In this document: one piece after another, positions 2,978-29,545 of the stretch
Layout: each line of letters begins with the position of its first letter
Numbering within the stretch: position 1 is the first letter of the stretch
Made by a program: the position numbers and the translations under genes
Notes under the pieces: model-generated
What the model saw: only the letters and a program-made list of their open reading frames with translations
What the model was told of the DNA's origin: nothing
The model's database searches: none
NCBI GenBank assembly: GCA_947446625.1
Contig: CANFIE010000001.1
Coordinates: 1 to 38,670, forward strand
Direction: 5' to 3'
DNA length: 38,670 bases
Source of the DNA: Acetobacteraceae bacterium
GTDB lineage: Bacteria; Pseudomonadota; Alphaproteobacteria; Acetobacterales; Acetobacteraceae

Positions 2978-3843
2978 TCGAATCTCCCGAACCGAACCGG
3001 CCCCTGGCAGGGCTGACGCTGGTGGCGACGCCGATCGGCAATTTGGCCGACCTGTCGCCCCGCGCCCTCGCCAGCTTCCGCGCCGCGGATGCGGTGCTGT
3101 GCGAGGATACCAGGGTAACCGGAGGAATGCTCGCCAAGCATGGCGTTTCGGTGACCATGATACCGCTGCACGATCACAATGAGGATGGGCAGATCCCCCG
3201 CCTGCTGGCCAGGCTGCGCGCCGGGGAGAATTTTGCCCTGGCCAGTGATGCCGGCACGCCGCTGGTCAGCGACCCCGGCTTTCGGCTGGTACGGGCGGCC
3301 ATTGCCGAGGGGCTGCCGGTTTCGGCCATTCCGGGACCGAATGCAGCGGTGATGGCGCTGACGCTTTCCGGCCTGCCGCCGCACCCGTTTCTGTTCTTCG
3401 GCTTCCTGCCGGTGAAGACGGCGGCACGCGTGGCCACGCTTGCCGGGCTACGGGCGGCCGAGCGGGCCGGGCTGAACGCCACGCTGATTTTCTATGAGGC
3501 ACCGCATCGCGTGGCCGAAATGCTGACCAGCGCCGCCGAAGTCTTCGGCGCCGAGCGCCCGGCCGCCGTGGCCCGCGAACTGACCAAGCGCTTCGAGGAA
3601 GTGCGGCGCGGCACCTTGGCCGAACTGGCTGCCTGGTACGCCGGCAACGAGGCACGCGGCGAAATGGCGGTGGTGGTTGGCCCTGCACCGGAGGAAGTGG
3701 CCGACGCGGTGAGCCTGGACGCGCAGCTGCAATCCGCCCTGGACCAGGGGCTGAGCCTGCGCGACGCGGCCGCCACGGTGGCCGAGGCCACCGGGCTGCC
3801 GCGCAAGCAGGTGTATCAGCGGGCGCTGGCGTTGAGGGGGTAG
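2965..3843 (+). CDS. rsmI: 16S rRNA (cytidine1402-2'-O)-methyltransferase RsmI
   Basis: 292-aa ORF. N-terminus LTLVATPIGNLADLSPRALASFRAADAVLCEDTRVT and later SDAGTPLVSDPG are typical of the RsmI tetrapyrrole-methylase fold. Confidence 0.9.
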   Translation: MALAIESPEPNRPLAGLTLVATPIGNLADLSPRALASFRAADAVLCEDTRVTGGMLAKHGVSVTMIPLHDHNEDGQIPRLLARLRAGENFALASDAGTPLVSDPGFRLVRAAIAEGLPVSAIPGPNAAVMALTLSGLPPHPFLFFGFLPVKTAARVATLAGLRAAERAGLNATLIFYEAPHRVAEMLTSAAEVFGAERPAAVARELTKRFEEVRRGTLAELAAWYAGNEARGEMAVVVGPAPEEVADAVSLDAQLQSALDQGLSLRDAAATVAEATGLPRKQVYQRALALRG

Positions 3844-3947
3844 CTAGAGCAATATCCGTCCTGATGAAATCATCAGAACGGATTTCTTGCTCTAGTATCA
3901 AATAGTTATAGAGCACGATGCGCCCTGACGGGCGCATCGTGCTCTAG
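3844..3947 (+). repeat. Double-hairpin low-GC intergenic element, copy 1 (orientation A)
   Basis: CTAGAGCAATATCCGTCCTGATGAAATCATCAGAACGGATTTCTTGCTCTAG-TATCAAATAGTTA-TAGAGCACGATGCGCCCTGACGGGCGCATCGTGCTCTAG. Termini are 8-bp inverted repeats. Starts directly after the rsmI TAG and ends 2 nt before the trpS stop. Confidence 0.9.
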
Positions 3948-3949
3948 AG

Positions 3950-4948
3950 TCAGCGCGGCAGCAGCCCCACCAGCCGCTCGGCCTCGGTGGCAATGGGGTC
4001 GGCAATGGCCGCCGCACGATGGGCGCCCTGGCGCAGTGCCGCATCCAGCGCACCATGGTCCTGCAGCAGCCGGGTCATTTCCTCGCGGATCGGCGACAGA
4101 TGCGCCACCAGCGCCTCGGTCAGCACTTCCTTGAAGGCACCGAAGCCCTTGCCGCCATGCTCGCGCAGCACGTTTTCCGGCATACTGTCGGTGATTGCAG
4201 CCAGAATGCCCACCAGGTTGCGCGCCTCGGGCCGGCCTTCCAGGCCCATGGTTTCCTCGGGCAGGGGTTCCGGGTCGGTCTTGGCGCGGCGGATCTTCTG
4301 GGCAATCTCGTCGGCGCTGTCGGTCAGGTTGATCCGGCTGGCATCCGAGGCGTCGGACTTGCTCATCTTCTTCGTGCCGTCGCGCAGGCTCATCACCCGC
4401 GCGGCCACGCCCTGGATCAGCGGCGTGATGTTGGGGAAGAACTCCACGCCGTAGTCGTGGTTGAACTTCTGGGCAATGTCATTGGCCAGTTCCAGATGCT
4501 GCTTCTGGTCATCCCCCACCGGCACCTTGGTGGCCTTGTAGGTCAGGATGTCGGCGGCCATGAGGTTGGGATAGACGTAAAGCCCGCTGGAAGCGGCCTC
4601 GCGGTCCTTGCCGGCCTTGTCCTTGAACTGCGTCATGCGGTTCAACCAGCCCAGCCGGGCGACGCAGTTGAAAATCCAGGCCAGCCGGGCATGCGCATGC
4701 ACATGCGACTGCACGAACAGGATGCACTTGGCCGGGTCCAGCCCGCAGGCCAGCAGGGCGGCGGCCATTTCGCGAGTCTGGCGGCCCAGCTCGGCGGGGT
4801 CCTGCCACACCGTCAGGGCGTGCAGGTCCACGACGCAGAAGATGCATTCGTGGTCGTCCTGCATCGGCACCCAGTTGCGGATGGCACCCAGGTAATTGCC
4901 AAGCGTGGGGACGCCGGTGGGCTGAATGCCCGAGAAAACGCGATCCAT
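3950..4948 (-). CDS. trpS: Tryptophan--tRNA ligase
   Basis: ORF 3950..5008. Conserved start region [22 protein letters not shown] and KMSKS motif ([11 protein letters not shown]). I chose the ATG at 4948; upstream in-frame starts at 4984 and 5008 remain possible. Confidence 0.9.
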
Positions 4949-5032
4949 GGTTGTGGACACCGTGGTTTGAGGGAGCGGGGTCATCCCCCGGCCCGGCAGG
5001 CGCGTCAAGCCTTGCGGCGCCGCCGCAGGGTC

Positions 5033-6574
5033 TTACGGCTTGCGACGACGGCGCAGGGTTTGCCGCAGTTCCGCCAAGCTGAGCGCACCGAAGCCCCAGG
5101 CGGCGGCGAAGTACACCGCCAGCCCCGTGCCCACCAGCAGCGCCAGCGCGCCATAGCGCCACAGCCCGCTGGCCGGGAACAGCACCATGCCCAGCAGCCA
5201 AAGCACCCCCGCCATCACCGCCGTGGCGGCCAGCAGCCGGGGCAGGCGGCGGCGCAATTGCCGGTCCGGCAACCAATGCCCGCGCCGATACAGCACCACG
5301 CCCAGCGCCAGGGCGTTGAACCAGGCTGCCAGGGCAGTGGAGAGCGCCACGCCCACATGCGCCAGCGCCTGCATCAGCACCAGGTTCAGCGCCAGGTTCA
5401 GCCCCACCGCGGCAAAGCCGATCTTCACCGGAGTGGCGGTGTCGCCCCGGGCGAAGAAGCCCGGCAACATCACCTTCACCAGCACATAGGCCGGCAACCC
5501 CAGCGCATAGGCCGAAAGCGCGGCGGCGGTGGCGGCGGCCTCGGCGGCGCCGAAGGCACCGCGCATGAACAACACCTCAATGATCGGGCCGGCCGCCAAC
5601 GCCTGGCCCAGCGCCGCCGGCAGGCAGAACAGCAGCGCCAGTTCAATGGCGCGGTTGGCGGTGCGATGCGCCGACAGTGGCTGCCCGGCGCGCACCTGGC
5701 GCGACAACAGCGGCAGCACCGCCGTGCCCACCGCTGCGCCAATGACGCCCAGCGGCAACTGCCCAATGCGGTCGGCGTAGTACAGGTAGCTCACCGCCCC
5801 GGTTGGCAGCAGCGAGGCGATGATGACATCAATGGCCAGGTTGAGCTGCGTGACCCCAGCGCCCACCAGCCCCGGCAGCATACGCTTCAGCACCAGCCGC
5901 ACCTCGGGGGTCAGCCGGGGCAGGCGGAACAGGTTCAGCGCCATGCCGGCCCGGGCGCAGGCCCACAGCACAATGCCAAGCTGCACCACGCCGGAAGCGG
6001 TAACGCCCCAGGCCAGCGCATGGGCGGGCGTGGCCACGAAGGGCGCCAGCGCCAGCAGCGACGCCATGGAGAGCAGGTTGAAGAACACCGGCGCGGCGGC
6101 GGCGGCGGCAAATTTCTCCAACCCGTTCAGCACGCCGGAAACCAGCGCCGTCAGGCAAATCAGCAACAGGTAGGGGAAGGTGATGCGGGTGAGTTCCACC
6201 GCCAGCTGGAACTTGGCCGGGTCGGTCGAAAAGCCCGGTGCCAGCACCGCCATCAGGTAGGGCATGAAGATCATGCCCAGCACGGTCAGCGCCGAGAGCC
6301 ACAGGCTCATCAGCACCGCCATGCGTTCCGCCAGTTGCTGCGCGGCGGCGCGGCCTTCCACCGCCAGCATGCCGGAAAAGGCCGGCACGAAGGCGGCGTT
6401 GAAGGCTCCCTCGCCAAACAGCCGGCGGAACAGGTTGGGCAGCTTCAGCGCCACGAAGAAAGCATCGGCCATGGGCCCGGCGCCCACCTTGGCGGCAATC
6501 AGCATGTCCCGGCCAAAGCCTAGCACGCGGCTGGCCATGGTCCAGCCGCCGACGGTGAGAATGCTTTTCAACAT
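5033..6574 (-). CDS. murJ: Lipid II flippase MurJ (MviN)
   Basis: ORF 5033..6769. Canonical N-terminus MLKSILTVGGWTMASRVLGFGRDMLIAAKVGAG begins at the ATG at 6574. Polytopic membrane protein of about 514 aa. murJ-trpS adjacency is common in alphaproteobacteria. Confidence 0.9.
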   Translation of the reverse strand: MLKSILTVGGWTMASRVLGFGRDMLIAAKVGAGPMADAFFVALKLPNLFRRLFGEGAFNAAFVPAFSGMLAVEGRAAAQQLAERMAVLMSLWLSALTVLGMIFMPYLMAVLAPGFSTDPAKFQLAVELTRITFPYLLLICLTALVSGVLNGLEKFAAAAAAPVFFNLLSMASLLALAPFVATPAHALAWGVTASGVVQLGIVLWACARAGMALNLFRLPRLTPEVRLVLKRMLPGLVGAGVTQLNLAIDVIIASLLPTGAVSYLYYADRIGQLPLGVIGAAVGTAVLPLLSRQVRAGQPLSAHRTANRAIELALLFCLPAALGQALAAGPIIEVLFMRGAFGAAEAAATAAALSAYALGLPAYVLVKVMLPGFFARGDTATPVKIGFAAVGLNLALNLVLMQALAHVGVALSTALAAWFNALALGVVLYRRGHWLPDRQLRRRLPRLLAATAVMAGVLWLLGMVLFPASGLWRYGALALLVGTGLAVYFAAAWGFGALSLAELRQTLRRRRKP

Positions 6575-6596
6575 GGCGCCGGGTTTAGCGCCTGGC

Positions 6597-7541
6597 TCAG
6601 CCCCCCGCCACACCCTGGGTGTTGACGTAGAGCGAATAGAGCGACTGCGCCGCCGAGATGAACAGCCGGTTGCGGTGCCGCCCGCCGAAGCACAGGTTGG
6701 CCGCACGCTCGGGCAGATGGATATGCCCGATCGGTGCCCCGGCCTTATTGAACACCCGCACGCCGTCATACTCGGCGCTCATGCCCCAGCCGCACCACAG
6801 GTTGCCGTCGATATCCACGCGGAAGCCATCCGGGCTTTCGCCGGGCTTGGTGACGATGAACTCGCGGCGGTTGCGCAGCGTCTTGCCATCCGGCGCCAGG
6901 TCATAGGCGATGAAGGCGCGCGGCTCGGCCCGGCTGGCGATGATGTAGAGGATGCTCTCATCCGGGCTGAAGGCCAGGCCATTCGGGTGGTTCACGTCGT
7001 CGCACACGCAGGTGATCTCGCCGGTATGGCCATCCACCCGGTAGGTGTGGGTGGCGGGCTGCTCGGCCTGCACCTTCTCACCCTCATAGAAGGCCAGGGT
7101 GCCGAAGGGCGGGTCGGTGAACCAGATGGAGCCGTCGCTCTTCACCACCACGTCATTCGGGCTGTTCAGCGGCTTGCCCTGGTACTTGTCGGCAATCACG
7201 GTGATGGAGCCGTCATACTCAAACCGCACCACGCGGCGGCCCAGATGCTCACAGGCAATGATGCGGCCCTGGCGGTCCCGGGTATGGCCATTGGCGTTGT
7301 TGCTGGGCTTCTGCCATTCGCTGACCTGCCCGCTGGCTTCGTCCCACTTCAGCACGCGGTTGTTAGGAATGTCGGACCAGAGCAGGCAGCGCGTGTCGCC
7401 CAACCACACCGGGCCTTCACCCCAGCGGCTGCCGGTCCACAGCCGCTCCACCGCTGAGAGCGCCAGGTGGTACTGCTTGAAGCTGGGGTCCAGCGCCACA
7501 ATGGCGGGGTCGGGGTAGCGTTCGCTCATCTGCCAGGTCAT
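6597..7541 (-). CDS. SMP-30/gluconolactonase/LRE family protein (no signal peptide)
   Basis: ORF 6597..7580. MTWQMSERYPDPAIVALDPSF..., NSPNDVVVKSDGSIWFTDPPFG, NGLAFSPDE, PDGFRVDIDGNLWCG. AGGGA Shine-Dalgarno 7 nt upstream of the ATG at 7541. Confidence 0.85.
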   Translation of the reverse strand: MTWQMSERYPDPAIVALDPSFKQYHLALSAVERLWTGSRWGEGPVWLGDTRCLLWSDIPNNRVLKWDEASGQVSEWQKPSNNANGHTRDRQGRIIACEHLGRRVVRFEYDGSITVIADKYQGKPLNSPNDVVVKSDGSIWFTDPPFGTLAFYEGEKVQAEQPATHTYRVDGHTGEITCVCDDVNHPNGLAFSPDESILYIIASRAEPRAFIAYDLAPDGKTLRNRREFIVTKPGESPDGFRVDIDGNLWCGWGMSAEYDGVRVFNKAGAPIGHIHLPERAANLCFGGRHRNRLFISAAQSLYSLYVNTQGVAGG

Positions 7542-7662
7542 TGGTCGGTCCCTCTCGGGGCGCCCATCTGCCGCGGGCACCTTGCCCGCAGCATGGCATG
7601 GTCGCCCCCTGCTTTGGCACCAATCCTGCGCGGATCGGCGCCCTGGGGGAAGAGGGTGCTGG

Positions 7663-8670
7663 TCAGCCGCCCGGTGCGCCCTGAGTGTTCACATACAGCG
7701 CGTAGAGCGACTTAGAAGCTGGCATGAACAGCCGGTTGCGGTGCCGCCCACCAAAGCACAGGTTGGCGCAGCGTTCCGGCAGCTTGATATGCCCAATCGG
7801 CGCGCCGTCCTTGTTCAGCACCCGCACGCCGTCCAGGCCGTCGGCGCCCATGCCCCAGCCGCACCACAGGTTGCCATCCACATCCACGCGGAAGCCGTCC
7901 GGCGTTTCGCCGTCACGCACCTGCAGGAACACCTTGTTGTTGGACAGCCTGCCATCGGTGGCGACATCAAACACACGGATGATGCGCGGCACCGCCGCTG
8001 CCTCGATCACGTAGAGCTTCTTCTCATCCGGGCTGAAGGCAAGGCCGTTGGGCCGATTGACCTCAGCGGTAGCAATGGAGATGCGGCCGGTCTGGCCATC
8101 CACCCGGTAGATGTTGGTGGTGGCCTGTTCGGGCGTGGCGGTTTCGCCTTCATACATCCCCAGAATGCCGAAGGGCGGGTCGGTGAACCAGATGCTGCCG
8201 TCGCTCTTTACCACCACGTCGTTCGGGCTGTTCAGACGCTTGCCCTCGAACTTGTCGGCAATGACAGTGATGGAGCCGTCATATTCGGTGCGGGTCACCC
8301 GCCGGGTCAGGTGCTCGCAGGTGATGAGGCGGCCCTGGCGGTCCCGGGTATTGCCGTTGCTGTTATTGGCCTGGGCGCGGAACACATCCACCCGCTTGGT
8401 GGCGTCGGAATAGCGCAGCATGCGGTTGTTCGGAATGTCAGACCAGATCAGCGCGCCCTGGTCGCCAAACCAGGCCGGCCCTTCGGACCAGCGGGCGCCG
8501 GTCCACAACCGCTCCACCGCAGCCAGCAGCAGGCGGTAGCGGTTGAAGCTGGGGTCCAGCACCACCACCGAGGGGTCCGGGTAGCGCTCGGAAGGCTCCC
8601 AGCCGGCCAGGGCCGGGGCGGCAAGGGCGGTCAGGGCGCCGGCGCCCAACAGGGCACGACGAGTGGTCAT
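7663..8670 (-). CDS. SMP-30/gluconolactonase/LRE family protein with Tat signal peptide
   Basis: Real gene is the C-terminal 335 aa of the 911-aa ORF 7663..10398. Starts MTTRRALLGAGALTALAAPALAGWEPSERYPDP (twin-arginine motif) with GGAGGA upstream. Paralog of 6597..7541. Confidence 0.85.
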   Translation of the reverse strand: MTTRRALLGAGALTALAAPALAGWEPSERYPDPSVVVLDPSFNRYRLLLAAVERLWTGARWSEGPAWFGDQGALIWSDIPNNRMLRYSDATKRVDVFRAQANNSNGNTRDRQGRLITCEHLTRRVTRTEYDGSITVIADKFEGKRLNSPNDVVVKSDGSIWFTDPPFGILGMYEGETATPEQATTNIYRVDGQTGRISIATAEVNRPNGLAFSPDEKKLYVIEAAAVPRIIRVFDVATDGRLSNNKVFLQVRDGETPDGFRVDVDGNLWCGWGMGADGLDGVRVLNKDGAPIGHIKLPERCANLCFGGRHRNRLFMPASKSLYALYVNTQGAPGG

Positions 8671-8784
8671 GGCGGTTTCCTCCGGTTGCATGGGGCTGCT
8701 TCGTTGGGCAGCCGTGCCGACCCTAGCACGCTTGGAACCACGCCCGGCCAGCGGCATGCTGGGGGTGGAGAAGGAAACGCCCGC

Positions 8785-10479
8785 ATGCCCGAAGCCCCCG
8801 CCGATCGCCTCGGCCCGCCCACCGGCGCCGATGCCGTGCCCGACGCTCATGGGCTGAACCTGTACGCCGCCGACCCCTGGCTGCGGCCGCTGCTGGGCCT
8901 GTACCTGCCGGCCGATCTGCTGGCCCATCTGGAGCCGCATCTGCACCGGCTGGGCGCCCTGGCCGGCGGCCAGCTGGATGCATGGGCCACCACCGCGGAC
9001 CATAACCCGCCCACCCTGGCGCCCCGCACCCGTCGGGGCGAGGATGCCCAGCGCGTCGACTACCACCCGGCCTATCGTGCCATGGAACAGGTGGCCTTTG
9101 CCGAGTTCGGCCTGGCCGCCATGAGCCACCGGGGCGGCGTGCTGGGCTGGTCCACGCCCATGCCGCCGGCAGCGAAATACGCGCTGACCTATTTGTTCGT
9201 GCAGGCGGAATTCGGTCTGTGTTGTCCCTTGTCGATGACCGACAGCCTGGCCCGCACACTCCGCAAATACGGCAGCCCGGAACTCGTGGCGCGCTACCTG
9301 CCGGGGCTGACCGCCACCGACCTGGACGCGCTGCAACAAGGCGCGATGTTCATGACCGAACAAGGCGCCGGCAGCGACGTGGCCGCCACCGCCGTGGAAG
9401 CCACCGAGAATGCCGATGGCAGCTGGGCGCTGCATGGCGACAAGTGGTTCTGCTCCAACCCCGATGCCGGCATGGCGCTGGTGCTTGCGCGTCGCCGTGG
9501 TGGGCCGCTGGGCCACCGGGGCATTTCGCTGTTCCTGCTGCCGCGGGAACGCCCGAATGGCAGCCGCAACGCCTATCGCATCGTGCGGCTGAAGCCGAAA
9601 CTCGGCACCCGCAGCATGGCCAGCGGCGAAATACGGCTGGAAGGCGCCACCGCCTTCCTCGTCGGCGACCCCGAGGCCGGCTTCCGGCAAATGGCCGACA
9701 TGGTCAACAACTCCCGCCTGTCCAACGGCATGCGCGCGGCGGGCATGATGCGCCGCGCGGTGACCGAGGCGATGTTCGTGGCCCGGCACCGCATCGCCTT
9801 CGGCCAGACCATTGTGAACATGCCCCTCATGCAGCGCCAATTGCTGAAGCTGGCCGTACCGATGGAGCAGGCCCGCACCATGGTGCTGCAAACTGCGGAA
9901 GCCCTGCGTCGGAGTGACGCCGGCGAGCCGGACGCCTACAAGCTGCTCCGCATCCTGACGCCACTGTTGAAATTCCGTGCCTGCCGCGATGCCCGCAAAG
10001 TCACTGGCGACGCCATGGAGGTGCGCGGCGGCTGCGGCTACATCGAGGAATGGGCCGACCCGCGTTTGGTGCGCGACGCGCATCTGGGCAGCATCTGGGA
10101 AGGTACTTCCAATATCGTGGCGCTGGATGTGCTGCGGGCGGCGCAGCGGGAAGGCTCGCTGCCCGTGCTGGCGGCGCATATTTCTGCTTGTGCCGGCAAT
10201 GCAGCGGAAGCCCCGGAACTGCCCGCCGCCCTCTCCCGCGCTGTGGCACTGACCCAGGCCGCCTTGCAAAACCCCGCCCTGGCTCGGCAGGCTGCCAGCG
10301 CCCTGTATCACCTGACCAGCGCCGCCGCGATGCTGTGGGAAGCGCGGCAGCTCAACATGCCAGCCCGGGCGGAACTGGCCCGGCTGGTGCTGCGCCACCG
10401 CGTGCTGCCACGCGACCCGCTGGCCAGCGAGGATGCCGGCGCCAGCGCCGAATTGCTCGGGCTGATGCTGGCAGCCTAG
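8785..10479 (+). CDS. AidB-like acyl-CoA dehydrogenase family protein
   Basis: In-frame ATG at 8785 within ORF 7582..10479, preceded by GGAGAAGGA. 564 aa. Contains FMTEQGAGSDV, WFCSNPDAG, IWEGTSNIVALDVLR. The TAG stop lies inside repeat copy 2. Confidence 0.8.
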   Translation: MPEAPADRLGPPTGADAVPDAHGLNLYAADPWLRPLLGLYLPADLLAHLEPHLHRLGALAGGQLDAWATTADHNPPTLAPRTRRGEDAQRVDYHPAYRAMEQVAFAEFGLAAMSHRGGVLGWSTPMPPAAKYALTYLFVQAEFGLCCPLSMTDSLARTLRKYGSPELVARYLPGLTATDLDALQQGAMFMTEQGAGSDVAATAVEATENADGSWALHGDKWFCSNPDAGMALVLARRRGGPLGHRGISLFLLPRERPNGSRNAYRIVRLKPKLGTRSMASGEIRLEGATAFLVGDPEAGFRQMADMVNNSRLSNGMRAAGMMRRAVTEAMFVARHRIAFGQTIVNMPLMQRQLLKLAVPMEQARTMVLQTAEALRRSDAGEPDAYKLLRILTPLLKFRACRDARKVTGDAMEVRGGCGYIEEWADPRLVRDAHLGSIWEGTSNIVALDVLRAAQREGSLPVLAAHISACAGNAAEAPELPAALSRAVALTQAALQNPALARQAASALYHLTSAAAMLWEARQLNMPARAELARLVLRHRVLPRDPLASEDAGASAELLGLMLAA

Positions 10480-10581
10480 AGCACTATGCGCCCTGTCGGG
10501 TGCATTTCGTGCTCTATAACTATTTGAAAATAAAGTAAGAAATCCGTTCTGATGATTCGATCAGAACGGATATTGCTCTAG
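10476..10581 (-). repeat. Double-hairpin low-GC intergenic element, copy 2 (orientation B, partly degenerate)
   Basis: CTAGAGCACTATGCGCCCTGTCGGGTGCATTTCGTGCTCTATAACTATTTGAAAATAAAGTAAGAAATCCGTTCTGATGATTCGATCAGAACGGATATTGCTCTAG. This is the reverse complement of the copy 1/4 architecture, with the inner base of hairpin A eroded. Confidence 0.9.
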
Positions 10582-10594
10582 CTGCCCCGCGGCT

Positions 10595-11371
10595 TCAGGT
10601 GCCGGTCCACTCCGCCGGCTTCTTGGCCAAAAAGTTCTGCACGCCGTTGCGGAAGTCATTGCTGGTGAAGCACATGGTCACCAGGTCGTCGCCATCCACC
10701 TGGCGGGCGGCCAGGCGCAGGCGGCGCATGGCTTCCTTGCTGGCGCGCATGGTCAGCGGCGCATGGCCGGCAATCAGCGTGGCCAGTTCGCGGACGCGGG
10801 CCTGCAAGGCGGCATGGTCGGGCAGCACCTCGGAAACCAGGCCAATGGCGCGAGCCTCATCGGCTTCCACCAGGCGGGCGGTGTAGATCAAGTCCAGCAC
10901 CTTGGCCGGGCCGAGCAACGCGGCCAGCCGGCCGTAATTCGCCATGGAAAGGCAGTTGCCCAGCGTTTTGGCGATGGGAAAGCCGAAGCGCATATTGGCG
11001 GCGGCAATGCGCATGTCGCACACCCCGGCAATGGCACCGCCACCCCCGGTGCAGGCGCCGGCAATCGCGGCGATGGTCGGCTTCGGGCATTGCTCCAGCG
11101 CCACCAGCACGGCGTCAATCCGGTGCTCGTAGGCCAGCGCATCCTCCGGCGTGCGGAACTCGCGGAACTGCGAAATATCGGTGCCGGCGGCAAAGGCCTT
11201 TTCCCCGGCGCCGGTAACAACCAGCACCTTCACCTTGGGGTCGTCGCCCACCGTCTCGGCAATTTCCTTCAGCCGGGCATACATCGGGAAGGTCATGGCG
11301 TTGCGTGCCTGCGGCCGGTTCAGCGTAATGGTGCCGATCCCGTCCGCGACCTCGTAGAGCAGTTCTTCCAT
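10595..11371 (-). CDS. Enoyl-CoA hydratase/isomerase (crotonase) family protein
   Basis: C-terminal 258 aa of ORF 10595..12556. MEELLYEVADGIGTITLNRPQARNAMT ... VLVVTGAGEKAFAAGTDISQF ... GGGGAIAGVCDMRIA. Confidence 0.85.
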   Translation of the reverse strand: MEELLYEVADGIGTITLNRPQARNAMTFPMYARLKEIAETVGDDPKVKVLVVTGAGEKAFAAGTDISQFREFRTPEDALAYEHRIDAVLVALEQCPKPTIAAIAGACTGGGGAIAGVCDMRIAAANMRFGFPIAKTLGNCLSMANYGRLAALLGPAKVLDLIYTARLVEADEARAIGLVSEVLPDHAALQARVRELATLIAGHAPLTMRASKEAMRRLRLAARQVDGDDLVTMCFTSNDFRNGVQNFLAKKPAEWTGT

Positions 11372-11458
11372 GGGGCTGGTCCTTGCGTGGTGGGCAACCC
11401 TTGCCGGGGAAGCCGCATCGGGGCAAGTCTGCCAGCGCTTTCGGAAGGAACCTTGCCC

Positions 11459-12631
11459 ATGCTGCCCTTGGCCCGCTTCACCGTGCTGGACCTCACCCGC
11501 GTGCGCTCCGGCCCCACCTGCGTCCGGCAGTTGGCCGACTGGGGCGCCAATGTCATCAAGGTTGAGGCGACCGAAGCGGTGGACACCGGTGGCGGCCTGG
11601 GCGGCGAGCGGCATGGACCAGACTTCCAGCACGTGCACCGCAACAAGCGCAGCATGACGCTGAATCTGAAGGACCCCGACGGGCTGAAGCTGTTCCACCG
11701 CATGGTGGCCCAGGCCGATGTGGTGGTGGAGAATTACCGCCCCGATGTGAAGGACCGCCTGGGCATCAATTTCGAGGCATTGTCGGCGGTGAACCCGCGC
11801 ATCGTGCTGGGCAGCATCGGCGGCTTTGGCCAAACCGGCCCCTATGCCCGCCGCCCGGGCTTCGACCAAATCGCCCAGGGCATGGGCGGCATCATGTCTG
11901 TCACCGGGCTGCCGGGGCAGGGGCCCGTGCGCGCCGGTATCCCGGTGGCGGACCTCACCGCCGGCCTCTACTGCGCCATTGGCATTCTGGTGGCGCTGCT
12001 GGAGCGTGAGCAGACCGGCAAGGGCCGCTGGGTCCACACCAGCCTGCTGGAAGCCATGGTGGCGATGATGGACTTCCAGGCCACCCGCTGGACCATGAAG
12101 CACGACGTGCCCGGCCAGGCCGGGAACGACCACCCGACCACGGTGCCCACCGGCCTGTTCCGCACCAAGGACGGCTTGATGAACCTGGCCGGTGGCGGGC
12201 AGGAGATGTGGAACCGCATCGTCGAGACGCTGGGCATTTTCACTGAGGCGAAGGACCCCGACCTGGCCACCGACAAGCTGCGCGCTGCCAACCGGGAAAA
12301 GACCAACGGCGTGCTGCAGAAGGTGCTGGAGACCGACACCAGCGCCCGCTGGATTGAGAAGCTGAACAAGGCCGGCGTGCCGGCCGGCCCGGTCTATTCC
12401 ATGGACCAGGTCTTCGCCGACGAACAAGTAAAGCATCTGGGCCTGGAATGGCCGGTGGAGCACCCGACGCTCGGCACGGTGAACCTGGTGCGTCACCCGA
12501 CGAATATTGAGGGCGTGGCCAACCCGCGCCGCCCCACGCCGGAACGCGGCGAGCATACTGACGCCATCCTGGCCGAGTTCGGCGTGAGCCCCGAGGAAGT
12601 TGCCGCGCTGCGCAAAAAGGGTGCGATCTAG
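11459..12631 (+). CDS. Family III CoA-transferase (CaiB/BaiF)
   Basis: In-frame ATG at 11459 in ORF 10763..12631. MLPLARFTVLDLTRVRSGPTCVRQLADWGANVIKVE, GFDQIAQGMGGIMSVTG. 390 aa. Divergent from the crotonase gene. Confidence 0.85.
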   Translation: MLPLARFTVLDLTRVRSGPTCVRQLADWGANVIKVEATEAVDTGGGLGGERHGPDFQHVHRNKRSMTLNLKDPDGLKLFHRMVAQADVVVENYRPDVKDRLGINFEALSAVNPRIVLGSIGGFGQTGPYARRPGFDQIAQGMGGIMSVTGLPGQGPVRAGIPVADLTAGLYCAIGILVALLEREQTGKGRWVHTSLLEAMVAMMDFQATRWTMKHDVPGQAGNDHPTTVPTGLFRTKDGLMNLAGGGQEMWNRIVETLGIFTEAKDPDLATDKLRAANREKTNGVLQKVLETDTSARWIEKLNKAGVPAGPVYSMDQVFADEQVKHLGLEWPVEHPTLGTVNLVRHPTNIEGVANPRRPTPERGEHTDAILAEFGVSPEEVAALRKKGAI

Positions 12632-13179
12632 TCACGCGTCAGCCGCACCTCCACCTCGCGCGTCACATAGCCCCATTCGGCGGTGGCGCGCAGGCGGGCG
12701 AGTAGTTGGTCAAAGGCCACTTCATGCTCGGGCGCGAATTCGAACCAGGTGAGGAAATCGAACTCCCCTCCCTGGTCGCGGCAATGGATCAGCCGCCGGG
12801 CCACGGCCGGCAGGTATTCCAGCCCGATGGCGATATGCTGGCTCTGCTCCTCCAGCAGGGCGCGGCGGGCATCCTGCGCCAGGTCCCACCAGGCCTCGCT
12901 CTTGCTCATCGGAATCAGTGCGGCGCGGGTTGCCCCTGGCCGGCCCAGCCCTTGCTGCACCCCGGCCAGGCGAGCGCGCTCGACCTCGGCGGTGTAGCGC
13001 AGGTTGCTGTTGGCCACCCCGCGCAATTGCCAGGCACCGGGCGGCGGCACATCTGGCCCCTCATGCATCGCCAGCCGCGCCGCCTGCGGCAGCGAGGCAC
13101 CGGCCAGGGCGGCAATGGCAGTGATCCGCCAGGGACCGGCCGTGCCGGCGGTGATGGCAATGGGGAGGGGCGTGGGCAT
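12628..13179 (-). CDS. Chlorite dismutase family protein (short clade-2 Cld-like, 183 aa)
   Basis: C-terminal 183 aa of ORF 12628..13719. IPMSKSEAWWDLAQDARRALLEEQSQHIAIGLEYLPAVARRLIHCRD...FDFLTWFEF. His and an Arg 13 residues downstream match the heme-ligand/distal-Arg spacing of characterised Clds (from memory). Confidence 0.7.
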   Translation of the reverse strand: MPTPLPIAITAGTAGPWRITAIAALAGASLPQAARLAMHEGPDVPPPGAWQLRGVANSNLRYTAEVERARLAGVQQGLGRPGATRAALIPMSKSEAWWDLAQDARRALLEEQSQHIAIGLEYLPAVARRLIHCRDQGGEFDFLTWFEFAPEHEVAFDQLLARLRATAEWGYVTREVEVRLTRD

Positions 13180-13190
13180 ATTCCATCCTA

Positions 13191-13240
13191 GCAAACCACG
13201 TGCCCAGCGAACCACGTGCCGCCGCGCACGCCACGTGCAG
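13191..13240. promoter_or_regulatory. Three CACGTG palindromes (two as AACCACGTGCC direct repeats) in a divergent promoter region
   Basis: CACGTG at 13197-13202, 13213-13218 and 13232-13237, with start-to-start spacing of 16 and 19 bp. They lie in the 126-bp gap between the Cld-like gene (start 13179, -) and the TarD-like gene (start 13306, +). Confidence 0.45.
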
Positions 13241-13305
13241 TCTTGACCCCGCCCCCGGCCTGGGCCAGCAATCTGCCATAGCAGTAGCAGAAGGCCCGCC
13301 CGAGC

Positions 13306-14484
13306 ATGCGCATTACCTCGATCCGCGACGGCGTGGTGCCGATCGCCTCCGACATCGCCAACGCCTTCATCGATTTCTCCAAGATGACCGCTTCGGTCGT
13401 GGCGGTGACGGTGGAGGACGGCAACGGACATAGCGCCACCGGCTATGGCTTCAACAGCAATGGCCGCTATGCCCAGCCCGGCCTGCTGCGGGAACGCTTC
13501 ATCCCCCGCCTGTTGGAAACGGCGCCCGCCGCACTGGAATATGGCGATGGCGGGCTGGAGCCGGCCGGCGGCTGGGCCGCCATGATGAAGAACGAAAAGC
13601 CCGGCGGCCATGGCGACCGCAGTGTTGCCGTGGGCGTGCTGGACATGGCGCTGTGGGACGCGGCGGCCAAGCTGGAAGGCGTGCCGCTGTGGAAGCTGCT
13701 GGCCATGCGCTATCGCCAAGGCCAGGCTGACGACAACGCCTGGGTCTATGCCGCCGGCGGCTACTACTACCCCGGCAAGGGCGTGGACGCGCTGGTGGAG
13801 GAAATGAAGCGCTACCTGGGCCTGGGCTACAGCGTGGTGAAGATGAAAATCGGCGGCGCCCCCGGCACCAGCGTGCGCGACGCACTGAAGGAAGACATCG
13901 CCCGGATTGAGGCCGTGTTGGGCCTGCTGGGCGGCGATGGCAGCCGGCTATGCGTGGATGTGAATGGCCGCTTCGGCCTGCATGCCGCCCTGGCCTATGC
14001 CGCCGCGCTGGAGCGCTACAAGCTGCGCTGGTACGAGGAACCGCTGGACCCGCTGGACTACAGCACCCACGCCACCCTGGCGGAACACTACCAAGGCCCC
14101 ATCGCCACCGGCGAAAACCTATTCAGCATGCAGGATGCCCGCAACCTGATCCGCCATGGCGGCCTGCGGCCTGACCGGGATATCCTTCAGTTCGACCCGG
14201 CGCTGTCCTACGGGCTTGTGGAATACCTGCGCACGCTGACCATGATGGCCGAGCATGGCTGGAGCCCGCGGCGCTGTGTGCCGCATGGCGGGCATCAATT
14301 CGCGCTGAACATTGCGGTGGGGCTTGGGCTGGGCGGCAATGAAAGCTACCCGGAGGTCTTCGCGCCCTTTGGCGGCTTTGCGGATGCTACCCCGGTGCGG
14401 GAAAGCCGCATCCGCATGCCGGATGCACCGGGCATTGGCTTTGAACAGAAGTCCAATCTGTGGGCGGTGCTGAAGGACCTGTGA
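13306..14484 (+). CDS. Enolase-superfamily enzyme, D(-)-tartrate dehydratase (TarD)-like
   Basis: 392 aa. DFSKMTASVVAV, GYGFNSNGRYAQPGLLRERF, MMKNEKPGGHGDRSVAVG, YAAGGYYYPGKG, VVKMKIGGAP, WYEEPLDPLDY, ATGENLFS and PHGGHQFALNIAVGLGLGGNESYP closely resemble my recollection of Bradyrhizobium TarD. Confidence 0.75.
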   Translation: MRITSIRDGVVPIASDIANAFIDFSKMTASVVAVTVEDGNGHSATGYGFNSNGRYAQPGLLRERFIPRLLETAPAALEYGDGGLEPAGGWAAMMKNEKPGGHGDRSVAVGVLDMALWDAAAKLEGVPLWKLLAMRYRQGQADDNAWVYAAGGYYYPGKGVDALVEEMKRYLGLGYSVVKMKIGGAPGTSVRDALKEDIARIEAVLGLLGGDGSRLCVDVNGRFGLHAALAYAAALERYKLRWYEEPLDPLDYSTHATLAEHYQGPIATGENLFSMQDARNLIRHGGLRPDRDILQFDPALSYGLVEYLRTLTMMAEHGWSPRRCVPHGGHQFALNIAVGLGLGGNESYPEVFAPFGGFADATPVRESRIRMPDAPGIGFEQKSNLWAVLKDL

Positions 14485-14490
14485 GCCGTT

Positions 14491-14513
14491 GGGGCCGGCC
14501 GGTGGCCGGCCCC
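14491..14513. terminator. GC-rich hairpin between convergent genes (candidate bidirectional terminator)
   Basis: GGGGCCGGCC-GGT-GGCCGGCCCC is a perfect 10-bp stem with a 3-nt loop, followed by GTTTCAC. It lies between the TGA at 14482-84 (+) and the stop at 14524-26 (-). Confidence 0.6.
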
Positions 14514-14523
14514 GTTTCACAGC

Positions 14524-15492
14524 TTAGTTGTTCTGCTGCACCGCGCTGAGCAGCCAATGGCCGCCACGGGCGCGCACAAAGGTCCAGGTCTCGGTGGCCT
14601 GGGTGCGCTGGGTGGTGCTGCCCTCGGCCACGCTGTTATCGGCCACGCGGAAAGTGGCATCCAGCATGGTGAAGCGCATGGCCACCGTGGCGTATTCCCG
14701 GCCATTCTCGGCCCAGGCTTCGGCCAGATCGCCCTGCTCCAGCTTCACATCGCGGGTTTCATTGCGCAGGCCCTTGCTGGCCAGTTCCGCCAGATCATCG
14801 GCGAAGTACTGCACCATCTCGGGCGTGCACAGCGTTTGCAGGGCGCGCATGTCCTGCTTCGACCAGGCGGCGTTCACGCCCTGCATGGTCTGCTCGAAGC
14901 TTTGGAAATCAGCATCCGCAATGGCTACCGGCGCCTCCGCCGGCGTGGCACCGCCGCCATTGCCACCCTGGAGCGGGCCTTCCGCCATGCGCGGCATGGC
15001 ATTGCCCGGCATGCCGGCCAAGGCCGGCTGCTGCGCGCCCATGCGGCGACGCAGGAAGCCCACCACCAGCCAGACCAGGCCGCCGATCAGCGCAACCTGC
15101 AGCAGCAGGCCGATAAAGCTGGCAAAGCCGAAGCCGCCGCCACCGAACATGCCATGGCCGAACAGCATGCCAGCCAAGCCCACGCCGATGAGGCCGCCCA
15201 TCAAGCCACCCATCAACCCACCGCCAAACAGGCCGGGGCGGGGTGCCGCCTGCGGCGCCGCCGGGCGGGCGGCATTGGGCGCACCCACGCCGGGGCGGCT
15301 GGGTTCGGTCATGCTGCGTTCAACCGGGCGGGCCGGAGCGGGGGCGGTATTGGTGGCCGGCGGCGCGCTGTAGGTGCGGCTGCCGCGGCTGCCCGCAGAG
15401 CTGCCGCCGCCAGGCCGGGCATCAGCCAGCACGGGGGCCAGCGCCATGGCACCGGCGGTGACAGCCACGAGCAGAAGGGAAGGGCGACGCAT
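14524..15492 (-). CDS. Tim44-like domain protein (signal/anchor + Gly-rich TM + C-terminal Tim44 domain)
   Basis: ORF 14524..15513; ATG at 15492 has AAGGAAT upstream. MRRPSLLLVAVTAGAMALAPVLA, GGLMGGLMGGLIGVGLAGMLFG. C-terminus FQSFEQTMQGVNAAWSKQDMRALQTLCTPEMVQYF...WTFVRARGGHWLLSAVQQ. Confidence 0.75.
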   Translation of the reverse strand: MRRPSLLLVAVTAGAMALAPVLADARPGGGSSAGSRGSRTYSAPPATNTAPAPARPVERSMTEPSRPGVGAPNAARPAAPQAAPRPGLFGGGLMGGLMGGLIGVGLAGMLFGHGMFGGGGFGFASFIGLLLQVALIGGLVWLVVGFLRRRMGAQQPALAGMPGNAMPRMAEGPLQGGNGGGATPAEAPVAIADADFQSFEQTMQGVNAAWSKQDMRALQTLCTPEMVQYFADDLAELASKGLRNETRDVKLEQGDLAEAWAENGREYATVAMRFTMLDATFRVADNSVAEGSTTQRTQATETWTFVRARGGHWLLSAVQQNN

Positions 15493-15783
15493 GCGTTGGG
15501 ATTCCTTGGGCATTCAACCGTGGGCAATATAGGCACGCATTGGCCACGTTGCGAGATGTTCATGTGTGAGCAAGTGTGACAGCCGGGTCGTCTGGCTATT
15601 CGGCAATTGTGCGCGGCTTCGGGGGCGTGTTAGACCGTCAGCGTTCATGCCCCATTGCGATTGTCCCGAACTGCGGCGGTTTGCGCTGCGCTTCCGGCCT
15701 GCTGTGTTGCGCTTGGCCATGTCTGTCTCGCCCGCGCCTGCCATTCCTGGCCCGGCGGCGGGCCTGCTTCTGGAGTATCCTGT

Positions 15784-16407
15784 TTGAAGCTCTCCCCTCA
15801 GCAGGTCGCGGCTGCCAAGGCCCGCGGTTTCGTCATGTTTCCCGCCACGCGCAGCCAAATTGACCGCATGACCATGCAGCGCCGGGTGTTTGACGTGGAT
15901 GGCAGGCCGCATCTGGTTTCCCGCGATGGGCTTTACTTTGAAACCCATGCCACGCTCGCCCCGGTTATTGCCGATGTGGTTGAGATGGCACCCCCGCCAG
16001 TAGCCGAGCCGCCCCCGGCGCTGCCGGTTGCCGCCCCGGTGGTGGAAGCCGCCGCCGCCGTGCCGGCGCCCGAACCCGCCGCCCCCGAGGCCCAGCCTGA
16101 CGCCGAGCCCACCACCGCCCGCCCGTTGCGCCGCCGCCTGACCAAGCCCGATTCCGGCCCGGTTGAGGGGATGCTGACATTGACTGCCCCGCCCGATGAG
16201 GGCGAGGCGCCGCGCAAGCCGGTGCGCCGCCGCGCCATGGCCGCCCGCGTGGCGGAACCGACGCTGCACGCCGAACCGATGGCCGAGGCCGAGGGACCGG
16301 CGCGTGAACCCGAAGCCCGGCCGGCCATTCGCCGGCTTTGGCAGGGTGAACAGCCGCGCTGGCAAGTGGCCGGCGCGATGCGTCGCGGCCGCACGCCGCG
16401 CGACTAG
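15784..16407 (+). CDS. Hypothetical protein: ~55-aa N-terminal domain plus Pro/Ala/Glu-rich disordered tail
   Basis: Within ORF 15655..16407. High GC3 coding-like codon usage. Candidate TTG start at 15784 sits 8 nt after GGAG; alternative ATG at 15835. No family recognised. The TAG stop lies inside repeat copy 3. Confidence 0.5.
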   Translation: MKLSPQQVAAAKARGFVMFPATRSQIDRMTMQRRVFDVDGRPHLVSRDGLYFETHATLAPVIADVVEMAPPPVAEPPPALPVAAPVVEAAAAVPAPEPAAPEAQPDAEPTTARPLRRRLTKPDSGPVEGMLTLTAPPDEGEAPRKPVRRRAMAARVAEPTLHAEPMAEAEGPAREPEARPAIRRLWQGEQPRWQVAGAMRRGRTPRD

Positions 16408-16508
16408 AGCACTATGCGCCCTGACGGGCGCATTTCGTGCTCTGTAACTATTTGATACCAAAGCAAGAAACCCGTTCTGATAATTCCATCAGAAAGGATA
16501 TTGCTCTA
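16404..16508 (-). repeat. Double-hairpin low-GC intergenic element, copy 3 (orientation B, partly degenerate)
   Basis: CTAGAGCACTATGCGCCCTGACGGGCGCATTTCGTGCTCTGTAACTATTTGATACCAAAGCAAGAAACCCGTTCTGATAATTCCATCAGAAAGGATATTGCTCTA. Confidence 0.9.
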
Positions 16509-16546
16509 ATGTTGGGCCGTACGCCGCGCGCGTGTAGGCCCGCCGG

Positions 16547-17497: not shown

Positions 17498-17498
17498 T

Positions 17499-19689: not shown

Positions 19690-19703
19690 GCGGGGGCTCT
19701 CCC

Positions 19704-29529: not shown

Positions 29530-29545
29530 GCTTGCAATTGCAAGC
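29530..29545. promoter_or_regulatory. Perfect 16-bp palindrome GCTTGCAATTGCAAGC upstream of feoAB (candidate Fur-family/metalloregulator operator)
   Basis: Self-complementary over all 16 nt. Lies 43 nt upstream of the 29487 start of feoA in an AT-enriched patch (GTTAATGCGAATGGCTTGCAATTGCAAGC). It is 71 nt downstream of the RND gene stop. Confidence 0.45.

Follow-up and report, generated by a model that had tools for sequence, protein, structure and literature searches.

The DNA analysed here, a 38.7-kb stretch that we call the window, is a metagenome contig from an uncultured Roseomonas-clade Acetobacteraceae species. We found four copies of a noncoding sequence in it, 104–106 bp each and without a noteworthy open reading frame, all at junctions of convergent genes. 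Copy 1 occupies the entire gap between the RsmI stop codon (TAG, 3841–3843) and the TrpS stop codon (3950–3952). Copy 2 is flanked by genes for an AidB-like acyl-CoA dehydrogenase (+) and an enoyl-CoA hydratase (−), copy 3 by a hypothetical gene (15784–16407, +) and a TctC/Bug gene (16547–17497, −), and copy 4 by AzlD (+) and a class-III aminotransferase (−). By position, the features are:

3844–3947, + strand: copy 1, Y (young) subfamily; unit A 3845–3894, linker 3896–3908, unit B 3909–3946; model score 120.3 bits
3896–3908, + strand: linker of copy 1, TATCAAATAGTTA, with a perfect IHF consensus, WATCAANNNNTTR (window-wide consensus scan)
10476–10581, − strand: copy 2, Y subfamily, the most decayed of the four; model score 115.7 bits
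10477–10479, + strand: TAG stop codon of the AidB-like gene, which is the terminal TAG of copy 2 (gene calls)
10517–10529, − strand: linker of copy 2, TTTCAAATAGTTA, IHF consensus with one mismatch (from the sequence)
10554–10558: GAATC at the apex of hairpin A, copy 2 (motif scan)
16404–16508/16509, − strand: copy 3, Y subfamily; model score 117.2 bits
16405–16407, + strand: TAG stop codon of the hypothetical gene 15784–16407, which is the terminal TAG of copy 3 (gene calls)
16445–16457, − strand: linker of copy 3, perfect IHF consensus (window-wide consensus scan)
33906–34009, + strand: copy 4, Y subfamily; unit A 33907–33956, linker 33958–33970, unit B 33971–34008; 125.6 bits
33907–33909, + strand: TAG stop codon of AzlD, which is the terminal TAG of copy 4 (gene calls)
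33929–33933, + strand: GAATC (GANTC, the CcrM methylation motif) at the apex of hairpin A, copy 4 (motif scan)
33958–33970, + strand: linker of copy 4, perfect IHF consensus (window-wide consensus scan)
34010–34060, − strand: decayed unit A' of an older sibling (S) copy; 34.1 bits with model R2 over 33969–34060

Three distinct sub-motifs of 18–22 nt each match precisely these four places (0.00–0.02 matches expected from shuffles), confirming the four copies of about 104–106 bp that a sequence-only reading of the window had proposed at these coordinates and strands. The same reading had put the element at about 44% G+C in surroundings of about two-thirds, in line with our measurements of 41.5–47.1% for the element and 67.9% for the window. 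Pairwise identity among the four copies is 86–92%, the mean column identity of an element-only alignment is 94%, and copy 4 is nearest to the Y-subfamily consensus. Because the copies differ by 8–14%, recent bursts are not indicated. The decayed unit at 34010–34060 abuts copy 4, so that three hairpin units follow one another, and its head, TAGAGCC, includes the aminotransferase stop codon (34057–34059). The window is a MEGAHIT assembly, which would leave room for mis-assembly at repeats; however, this explanation, like chance similarity, is effectively refuted by the shuffles, by the recurrence of these joins in a separate MAG and in assemblies made independently from different samples, by an element length below the assembler's largest k-mer (k141 in contig names), and by the divergence between copies.

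Each of the four copies is predicted to form two very stable hairpins. The RNA minimum free energies range from −45 to −70 kcal/mol (z = −6.8 to −12.9), the DNA fold has −41.9 kcal/mol (z = −13), and both strands fold equally well. As a whole, the element is two-fold symmetric. It consists of two related hairpin units with TAGAG...CTCTA feet, which are inverted relative to each other and separated by a 13-nt A+T-rich linker. When copy 2 is reverse-complemented, it still fits the element model along its entire length (49.2 bits), and the TA/GAAA asymmetry of unit A recurs as a mirror image in unit B. Unit A is A+T-rich and unit B G+C-rich, with unit lengths of 38–52 nt. Both hairpins had been recognised from the sequence-only reading, and both are real; the stem of hairpin B, given there as 16 bp, is 17 bp long and perfect in copies 1 and 4 and is interrupted by the GAAA/TA asymmetry in copies 2 and 3. 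The 8-bp terminal inverted repeats described there are likewise correct, and the likeness of the Y-subfamily ends extends beyond them to 18 of 23 nt (manual reading). Mutations among the four window copies mainly break pairs or create G-U pairs, and we saw no covariation among them, the changes being mostly disruptive. This pattern is expected of a selfish element that decays after insertion.

In copies 1, 3 and 4, the linker is a perfect IHF consensus as predicted from sequence; the window contains no other perfect site (three observed vs 0.09 expected). The decayed copy at related locus L025 has a near-consensus site at the equivalent position, and the sibling subfamily described below has no IHF consensus. 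IHF therefore cannot be a general requirement of the family. We also considered an outward promoter in the linker and dropped the idea, as no promoter-like site was found within 3000–17500, a region that holds three of the four copies.

Unit A has a conserved bulge on its 3' side and a conserved loop, GATGGAATCA, that carries a GANTC site. This site is mutated in copies 1 and 3 and is thus lost from two of the four. Across the window, GANTC is three-fold depleted (23 observed vs 75.8 expected). The apex GATGGAATCA is kept at L025 and L041, and GAATC is also found at the unit A apex at L028. We rejected an alphaproteobacterial LexA box in hairpin A: GTTC...GAAC is inverted there and not a direct repeat.

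Convergent gene pairs flank all four copies, though just 8 of the 38 gene junctions in the window are convergent (estimated p ~0.001). The remaining four convergent junctions carry no element and have spacers of −4 to 39 nt. In three of the four copies (2, 3 and 4), the terminal TAG of the element is the stop codon of the neighbouring gene. The AidB-like gene of a relative, L031, has the same GCC-TAG end without the element there. The copies occur in either orientation relative to the adjacent genes, and gene neighbourhoods are altered compared with relatives at copies 1, 2 and 4. At L045, for example, the order is TrpS-ROK-RsmI, and in the window copy 1 stands in place of everything between the two stop codons, an interval of 1.2 kb. 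The inverted symmetry, the IHF consensus in the linker, the apex GANTC, the placement at convergent genes and stop codons, and the fifth unit are additions to the sequence-only reading.

That reading could match the element to no named family, and neither could our searches of Rfam, plasmids, viral contigs and the literature. In the Rfam search it had proposed, only a tRNA passes the gathering threshold in the window; at permissive settings, the best matches of the element are generic hairpin ones to microRNA models, scoring about 20 bits where the cut-offs lie at 74–84. With blastn at E up to 10, 72,556 plasmids, among them rhizobial megaplasmids, produced a single chance match of 29 nt, two pattern scans of viral contigs gave zero matches, and a literal sequence search of the literature returned only unrelated primers. 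An exact-pattern scan with TCAAATAGTTANAGAGCAC across 185,579 species genomes yielded 13 matches, against an estimated 17 or so by chance, and the same scan of JGI metagenomes yielded 9, also at chance level, none in either set extending into the element. The pattern joins the linker to the unit-B foot, and it was a poor choice, the linker having since been found to be subfamily-specific. These scans lent no support to the high genome-wide copy number that the sequence-only reading had derived from four copies in under 40 kb, which is conjectural. Matches at L008 and in Opitutales were rejected as homologues, being just 21–23 nt long and in unrelated context. A composite protein query made of six-frame translations of the element, which would pick up mis-called open reading frames over other copies, found nothing.

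The very stable predicted structure, together with stems that covary between subfamilies (see below), might suggest small RNA genes or cis-regulatory RNA motifs. We consider this highly improbable, given that no Rfam family reaches threshold, that 3000–17500 holds no promoter-like site, that both strands fold alike as DNA palindromes should, and that the copies take either orientation relative to their neighbours.

In related genomes, the Y subfamily is absent and a diverged sibling subfamily is present. One full sibling copy lies at L041:1203–1308 (24.3 bits with model R1, E ~0.002) and a second at L028:3339–3445. A decayed sibling copy begins on the aminotransferase stop codon at L034, L035, L036 and L041 (46.3 bits, E ~1e-10), and is a fuller ortholog of the window unit at 34010–34060. 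Model R2 was built solely from the L041 and L028 copies, with none from the window; in the reciprocal search, it recovers window copies 1 and 4 at 42 bits. Between the subfamilies, the feet, the unit-A loop with its GANTC and the linker core are conserved and the stems covary, with both sides changed at 6 of the 11 pairs of unit A and at 10 of the 17 of unit B. In DNA palindromes, template switching from one arm to the other can also make stems covary, with no selection involved. The two ends of the sibling element resemble each other at just ~8 of 17 positions, essentially the GAG foot (manual reading).

The sibling copy at L041 lies at a Glx-methyltransferase junction where the element is absent from L034, L040, L042, L037 and the window. 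The filled site reads CCC-TA[GAGTC...CGCTC]CA-GGGAAAG and the empty sites of the four relatives read CCC-TGA-GGGACCG, with flank homology resuming directly on both sides. These clean empty sites show the sibling unit to be a discrete insertion of about 104 bp at a stop codon. This sibling copy provides the sole clean pair of empty and filled sites, and none exists for the four copies in the window. Searches for proteins identical to RsmI, AzlD and HisB returned the same species alone and yielded no strain-level empty sites for those copies. L025 and L028 also differ in the presence of the element, at a VIT1-TctC junction. In the L025 copy, the inner hairpin A is identical at 30 of 30 positions and the remainder has diverged by ~40% (manual alignment).

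Such conservation of one hairpin amid divergence could reflect selection by the host. Like Caulobacter CIR or E. coli BIME-1, the element might serve the host by terminating transcription in both directions or by stabilising 3' ends, with an IHF site and an apex open to CcrM methylation, and recombination or gene conversion would have spread and homogenised it. Its strict confinement to convergent junctions fits this, as do the UUUCUU after the inner hairpin A, a terminator scan that flags copy 2 as terminator-like, the perfect IHF consensus of the linker, and the retention of the GANTC apex across subfamilies despite the depletion of GANTC in the window. However, mutations among the four copies mostly break pairs, GANTC is gone from half of them, the sibling subfamily is missing the IHF consensus, the other four convergent junctions of the window do without the element, and so do orthologous sites in close relatives. 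Low G+C and patchy distribution also suit an invader better, and we regard a host-selected module as improbable.

Our favoured joint explanation, to which we give a probability of roughly 45%, is that the four sequences are copies of a ~105-bp noncoding, non-autonomous and probably mobile dispersed repeat that is moved in trans. The sibling subfamily with its clean empty sites supports an element that, judging from these sequence comparisons, is or formerly was mobile. The element would enter at the TA of a YTAG/YTAR site, which in a 68% G+C genome would mostly be a stop codon, and its first G would rebuild a TAG stop. An enzyme encoded elsewhere would do the moving. Copies would persist only between convergent gene ends, where they would be harmless and would probably act as twin 3' hairpins, stopping transcription or protecting mRNA 3' ends in both directions, possibly with a bend imposed by IHF. 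Later, they would decay, gain G+C and serve as recombination substrates that change gene neighbourhoods. The mode of entry leaves two variants, TA duplication and insertion 3' of TAG without duplication, which predict the identical pre-insertion sequence. A target duplication of 3 bp or 4 bp was rejected, the left and right flanks of copies 3 and 4 being in disagreement.

The ends can also be read in another way. The element may be a classical MITE, an internally deleted DDE insertion sequence (IS630/Tc1-mariner, or the IS427/IS1031 type of the IS5 family) with GAG... termini; it would have entered the TA of CTAG/YTAR by double-stranded cut-and-paste with duplication of the TA, and the hairpins would be by-products or RNA structures selected later. 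IS630 elements prefer the TA in CTAG, and GAG ends are found in groups of the IS5 family. All four copies have TA at both ends with symmetric ends inside (TA/GAGCA...TGCTC/TA), the reconstructed targets are CTAG, CTAG, TTAG and TTAG, the filled site at L041 reads TG...TA where the empty sites show a stop codon, and the Y-subfamily ends match at 18 of 23 positions, where MITEs have terminal inverted repeats of about 15–30 bp. Size and central IHF consensus are also paralleled in the Neisseria Correia element (PMC10969869, PMC3184786). On the other hand, the G after the right-hand TA in all four copies is equally well part of the element, and neither the 72,556 plasmids nor the viral contigs yielded an insertion sequence with matching ends. 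Past GAG, the two sibling ends agree at just ~8 of 17 positions, a weak likeness if one transposase had to bind both. Each end folds into a hairpin of its own, whose stem covaries and whose foot alone is conserved, a feature for which a DDE enzyme that binds double strands has no need. Overall, we think a classical MITE rather unlikely.

For the repeat moved in trans, we tentatively favour an HUH/Y1 transposase of the RAYT or IS200/IS605 type, which would recognise hairpin and foot on single-stranded DNA; a DDE transposase that duplicates the TA is the alternative, and only slightly less likely. The absence of a transposase or RAYT gene from the window, already remarked on in the sequence-only reading, was borne out by gene tables and Pfam scans. 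No transposase appears in the gene tables of ~400 kb of related loci either, and the partner enzyme is thus hypothetical. In a more daring and quite improbable version, the mover would dock on the TAG stop (YTAG) and need only the TAGAG foot plus any hairpin, with the CcrM apex gating extrusion or cleavage by hemimethylation behind the replication fork. If true, this would be a cell-cycle-coupled, stop-codon-homing element, and its transposase a lineage not previously linked to such repeats.

The family appears to be new, comprises at least two subfamilies, and lies within the well-known class of small palindromic bacterial repeats. A REP, MITE or RIME class had been suggested from the sequence alone; the dispersed double-hairpin repeat is real, and the sibling subfamily and empty sites support mobility, but the GTAG head is absent. 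REP sequences are imperfect palindromes of 20–40 nt whose 5' foot carries a conserved GTAG (or CGTC) tetranucleotide (PMC3333891, PMC3733652). A likeness to REP/REPIN units, with their conserved tetranucleotide next to a palindrome, had been proposed, but this hallmark is lacking here: the element consensus contains neither GTAG nor CTAC, and CGTC occurs solely in the unit B loop. RAYT-associated families of this kind have more than 100 copies per genome and a Y1 (RAYT) gene with the repeats on its flanks; the density here is 4 copies in 38.7 kb. As in REP, BIME and REPIN elements, two inverted palindromic units enclose a linker; as in MITEs, the element is small, noncoding and present or absent at orthologous sites (the sibling copy at L041; L025 vs L028).

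From these comparisons, the closest resemblances appear to be to E. coli BIME-1, Neisseria Correia and Caulobacter CIR elements. BIME-1 (RIB-RIP) is a REP doublet with an IHF-binding linker (PMC3333891, PMC3184786). Both have two related but non-identical, inverted palindromic units with imperfect stems (y and z1 in BIME-1), a long and well-conserved linker, frequently with an IHF site in BIME-1 and with a perfect consensus here in copies 1, 3 and 4, and one copy per locus at the 3' ends of transcription units. The units here are 38–52 nt rather than 30–40 nt, however, with unit A being A+T-rich; the foot is TAGAG preceded by C, T or A and not GTAG; its TAG doubles as a stop codon; and the IHF consensus is confined to one subfamily. 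Correia elements (NEMIS) are MITEs of ~100–155 bp with TA at both ends and a central IHF site, and are co-transcribed as RNA hairpins (PMC10969869, PMC3184786). The present element shares with them the size class, TA at both ends, position next to genes and, in the Y subfamily, terminal inverted repeats and a central IHF consensus. Sequence similarity is absent, no promoter-like motifs were detected here (3000–17500), and Correia ends pair into one long hairpin, whereas here each end forms its own hairpin and the sibling ends are barely alike.

Caulobacter CIR repeats are ~110 bp long, alphaproteobacterial and strictly intergenic, with a GANTC methyltransferase site (PMC3184786, PMC10969869). 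Compared by description only, unit A here also carries GANTC at the centre of an inverted repeat, though the site has been lost in two of the four copies. Chen and Shapiro reportedly described in 2003 the inverted-repeat organisation of CIR1 and CIR2, with a CcrM site central in one repeat. We know of no description of stop-codon docking for CIR. RIME1 is alphaproteobacterial and intergenic, with two large palindromes and a spacer (PMC2573895). The element resembles RIME1, compared by architecture, and Pseudomonas REPINs in being intergenic, ~70–110 bp long and built of two palindromes or inverted REPs with a spacer. It has no blastn match among the plasmids searched, which include rhizobial megaplasmids, and it differs from REPINs, whose arms pair together and which have GTAG-type heads and an adjacent RAYT gene, in having no GTAG head. 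PATEs derived from IS200/IS605, with subterminal hairpins in the same orientation and no inverted ends, were rejected as a match; the hairpins here are terminal and the units mutually inverted.

These results add a repeat family from a poorly studied, mostly uncultured branch of the Acetobacteraceae, and account for the islands of low G+C and the very strong hairpins seen where genes end in these genomes. They also flag stop codons supplied by repeats and mark places of changed gene order, and with the two covariance models the repeats in MAGs can be masked or counted. The conserved feet, the conserved loop with GANTC, the freely covarying stems and the docking on stop codons suggest that structure is recognised, and not terminal sequence. 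Once its mechanism were known, the family would offer a compact system for asking how REP-like doublets spread, a matter that is unsettled even for the BIMEs of E. coli.

We read all four sites directly and found at each the 104-106-bp repeat described by the sequence-only reading. The copies, together with the only RNA gene that Rfam and ARAGORN found in the window, are as follows:

256-330, - strand, tRNA-Gly (GCC)
3844-3947, + strand, copy 1
10476-10581, - strand, copy 2
16404-16508/9, - strand, copy 3
33906-34009, + strand, copy 4

Three independent 18-22-nt sub-motifs, searched with up to 3 mismatches, each matched exactly the four copy sites (0.00-0.02 expected from shuffles). Pairwise identity among the copies is 86-92%, with a mean column identity of 94% in the element-only alignment, and a search of the window with R1, a covariance model built from these four copies, turned up no fifth full copy. 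The copies have a G+C content of 41.5-47.1%, compared with a window value of 67.9%, in keeping with the earlier estimate of about 44% in a G+C-rich context. The repeat family is real, and it appears to be undescribed. The window derives from a metagenome assembly. Mis-assembly is unlikely, since independent assemblies of two ENA samples (ERZ27280181 and ERZ27263722) both yielded the region and two contigs of MAG GCA_947449795.1 carry the same copies at the same joins. TrpS and an aminotransferase place the host in the Roseomonas branch of Acetobacteraceae; its TrpS shares 84% identity with Crenalkalicoccus, Paracraurococcus and Belnapia sequences, and the nearest uncultured relatives reach 87-92%.

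RNA folding gave two separate hairpins in every copy (-45 to -70 kcal/mol, z from -6.8 to -12.9), equally good on both strands, and single-stranded DNA folding gave -41.9 kcal/mol (z = -13), so the double-hairpin structure proposed from sequence held up. The longest fully complementary palindromes of the window are found among these hairpins. The terminal inverted repeats, put at 8 bp before, are present and were understated: of 23 positions compared, 18 agree between the left end and the reverse-complemented right end. The arms of hairpin A are asymmetric in a conserved way (5' arm ...AA-TA-TCC, 3' arm GGA-TTTC-TT), and in copies 2 and 3 the mirror image of this asymmetry appears in hairpin B (CAC-GAAA-TGCG against CGCA-TA-GTG). 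Because of this mirroring, and because the reverse complement of copy 2 fits R1 end to end (49 bits), the element reads as a pair of related palindromes inverted around a linker, unit A having an A+T-rich stem and unit B a G+C-rich one; the foot of each is TAGAG...CTCTA. Unit B is a perfect palindrome in copies 1 and 4, with one position altered in both arms (copy 1 having G-C and copy 4 T-A), and its loop is inverted between copies (TGAC or GTCA); perfected arms and inverted loops are typical behaviour of DNA palindromes. No covariation was found among the four window copies, where changes mainly break pairs or give G-U pairs, which looks like post-insertion decay rather than structural selection.

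The 13-nt linker, TATCAAATAGTTA, perfectly matches the IHF consensus WATCAANNNNTTR. Such perfect matches occur three times in the window (0.09 expected), one each in copies 1, 3 and 4 and always in the linker, and the copy 2 linker has one mismatch. Hairpin A bears the CcrM methylation motif, GANTC, within its apex sequence GGAATC. This motif is depleted about three-fold in the window (23 sites, for example at 2980, 11662 and 33929, vs 75.8 +/- 7.7 expected from shuffles), as is typical of alphaproteobacteria with CcrM.

Placement was read from a map of 39 protein genes, rebuilt from gene calls on identical contigs and Pfam scans; it holds no transposase, as the sequence-only reading had said of transposase and RAYT genes. 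Each of the four copies occupies a convergent (3'-3') junction, a class making up only 8 of the 38 window junctions (hypergeometric estimate, p ~0.001). Copy 1 fills the gap between the RsmI and TrpS stops to within 0 and 2 nt, and the terminal TAG serves as the stop codon of an AidB-like gene at copy 2, of a hypothetical gene at copy 3 and of AzlD at copy 4. Removing one TA as a putative duplication yields the targets CTAG, CTAG, TTAG and TTAG (the last two being CTAA on the other strand), and every reconstructed site leaves the gene with a TAG or TAA stop. Identical gene ends occur without the element in relatives, GCC-TAG for the AidB ortholog in L031 and AGG-GGG-TAG for RsmI in L045.

The family has two subfamilies. 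The nearest relatives, represented by ~150-200 kb of non-redundant DNA, yielded no full copy of the young subfamily, to which the window copies belong. Model R1 and a foot-anchored hairpin search identified copies of a diverged sibling subfamily (S):

L041:1203-1308, S copy
L028:3339-3445, S copy

These two are ~85% identical to each other and share the 105-nt two-hairpin layout of the young copies. Homology is reciprocal, as model R2, built from them only, recovered window copies 1 and 4 full-length (42 bits, filters off). A decayed S copy begins on the aminotransferase stop codon in L034, L035, L036 and L041 (46.3 bits, E ~1e-10), and its unit-A' remnant persists in the window at 34010-34060, abutting copy 4. 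Sequence is conserved between subfamilies in the feet (TAGAG/CTCTA), the unit-A loop region GATGGAATCA including GANTC, and the linker core TCAAATAG. The stems differ but remain paired, with both-side changes at 6 of 11 positions in the unit A inner stem and 10 of 17 in the unit B stem. S linkers lack the IHF consensus, and the two ends of S copies, read by eye, are alike at only ~8 of 17 positions.

Partial matches are also found. An exact 30/30 match to inner hairpin A occurs in L025 (18959-18988), at the junction where VIT1 and TctC converge; outside the hairpin, the spacer is G+C-richer and ~60% similar to the element by manual alignment, with a near-consensus, inverted IHF site at the linker position. 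The orthologous junction of L028, which is close to L025 (TrpS 99.1% identical), holds an unrelated G+C-rich hairpin, CGTCCGCG-GCGCTGG-CGCGGACG (19690-19715), that may represent another REP-like repeat with a CGTC head. In the closest relative, the region upstream of murJ (L031:2995-3045, - strand) holds, in this order, TTAGAGCAAA, an imperfect G+C-rich stem of 13 bp closed by a GAAA loop, and TAATTTGC; foot and geometry match unit A and the stem differs (R1 14.3 bits, E 0.87); this is possibly a third subfamily or a solo unit. Linker-pattern scans of genome and metagenome collections returned chance matches only. Among them, the 22-23-nt matches in Opitutales MAGs (L001, L004, L010, L012) belong to an unrelated repeat or gene family: they sit in a ~90-nt low-G+C segment repeated at least twice in one MAG (L001 and L012 read), and the 22-nt core recurs twice in a second MAG.

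One sibling copy is a discrete insertion. The S copy of L041 lies between a glyoxalase-like gene and a methyltransferase gene, which are 10 nt apart, with no element, in L034, L040, L042 and L037. Along the coding strand of the upstream gene, the empty sites read CCC-TGA-GGGACCGCCG-ATG and the filled site CCC-TA[GAGTC...CGCTC]CA-GGGAAAGCCAT-ATG. Flank identity picks up at once on either side (25/27 by our own count, plus the 10-nt spacer), and the first G of the element rebuilds the upstream stop as TAG. The divergent AidB/SGL spacer likewise holds a full S copy in L028, remnants in L025 and L045, and a bare CTAG in the window (8723-8726).

At the three comparable window copies (1, 2 and 4), one flanking gene is syntenic with relatives and the other is not. 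At copy 1, TrpS is followed in relatives by ROK and/or MlaA; the L045 order, TrpS-ROK-RsmI-LppC-HisKA, is the window order plus ROK, and copy 1 replaces its 1.2-kb stop-to-stop interval (11000-12203; ROK-family gene of 1059 nt). ROK itself is absent from L025 and present in L028 and L031, so it was lost or gained more than once. AidB is followed in relatives by an epimerase or another gene, not by the hydratase of copy 2, and the aminotransferase at copy 4 is followed in all relatives by ParD and/or CobW, not AzlD, with the old S remnant still on the aminotransferase side. Synteny is broken at 3/3 element junctions vs ~2/9 others (rough Fisher p ~0.05). These changes fit recombination or deletion between dispersed copies; alternatively, they could reflect the tolerance of convergent junctions for breaks as well as insertions. 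The ParD toxin-antitoxin module is absent from the window; in L034 (11395-11420) and L037, a palindrome just upstream of the antitoxin gene, TTGGCATAATCTGCCAA, is probably its operator. A perfect 16-nt palindrome in the window, GCTTGCAATTGCAAGC (29530-29545), lies in the spacer upstream of feoA-feoB, where it could serve as the operator of an iron-responsive regulator.

Taken together, the repeat very likely belongs to the REP-doublet/MITE class as a non-autonomous mobile element in decay, which would have been moved in trans and entered at the TA of YTAG/YTAR. TA is rare at 68% G+C (488 in the 38.7-kb window) and harmless TAs lie mostly in TAG or TAA stops, which would explain the stop-codon docking. 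At 12628-12631, a convergent CoA-transferase (+) and chlorite-dismutase-like gene (-) share 4 nt, a palindromic CTAG that gives both their TAG stop, a preferred target by this rule yet unoccupied. A DDE enzyme duplicating TA and HUH/Y1 insertion 3' of TAG without duplication predict identical sequences. IS630, acting at CTAG, exemplifies the former, and such an enzyme is only slightly less likely here. We lean weakly and tentatively towards HUH-like recognition of hairpin plus foot, because the ends form separate hairpins, conservation is confined to foot and loop as the stems drift, and sibling ends are barely inverted repeats; REP/BIME with TnpA-REP is a precedent (PMC3333891).

The closest architecture is that of E. 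coli BIME-1/RIB, with inverted y and z1 units around a conserved linker bearing an IHF site, at 3' ends (PMC3333891, PMC3184786). The element lacks the REP-defining GTAG head. Membership among MITEs depends on the TA duplication, which is unproven. By description, Neisseria Correia elements are similar (~105-155 bp with a TA at either end and an IHF site in the middle; PMC10969869), and Caulobacter CIR is closest in lineage and motif content (~110 bp, strictly intergenic, with a CcrM site; PMC3184786, PMC10969869).

Once inserted, the element may provide twin 3' hairpins, a putative terminator (the terminator-like UUUCUU comes after inner hairpin A), an IHF-induced bend and a methylatable apex, all of them possible roles. 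Its most unusual traits are the docking on stop codons with regeneration of the stop, and the conserved GANTC apex.
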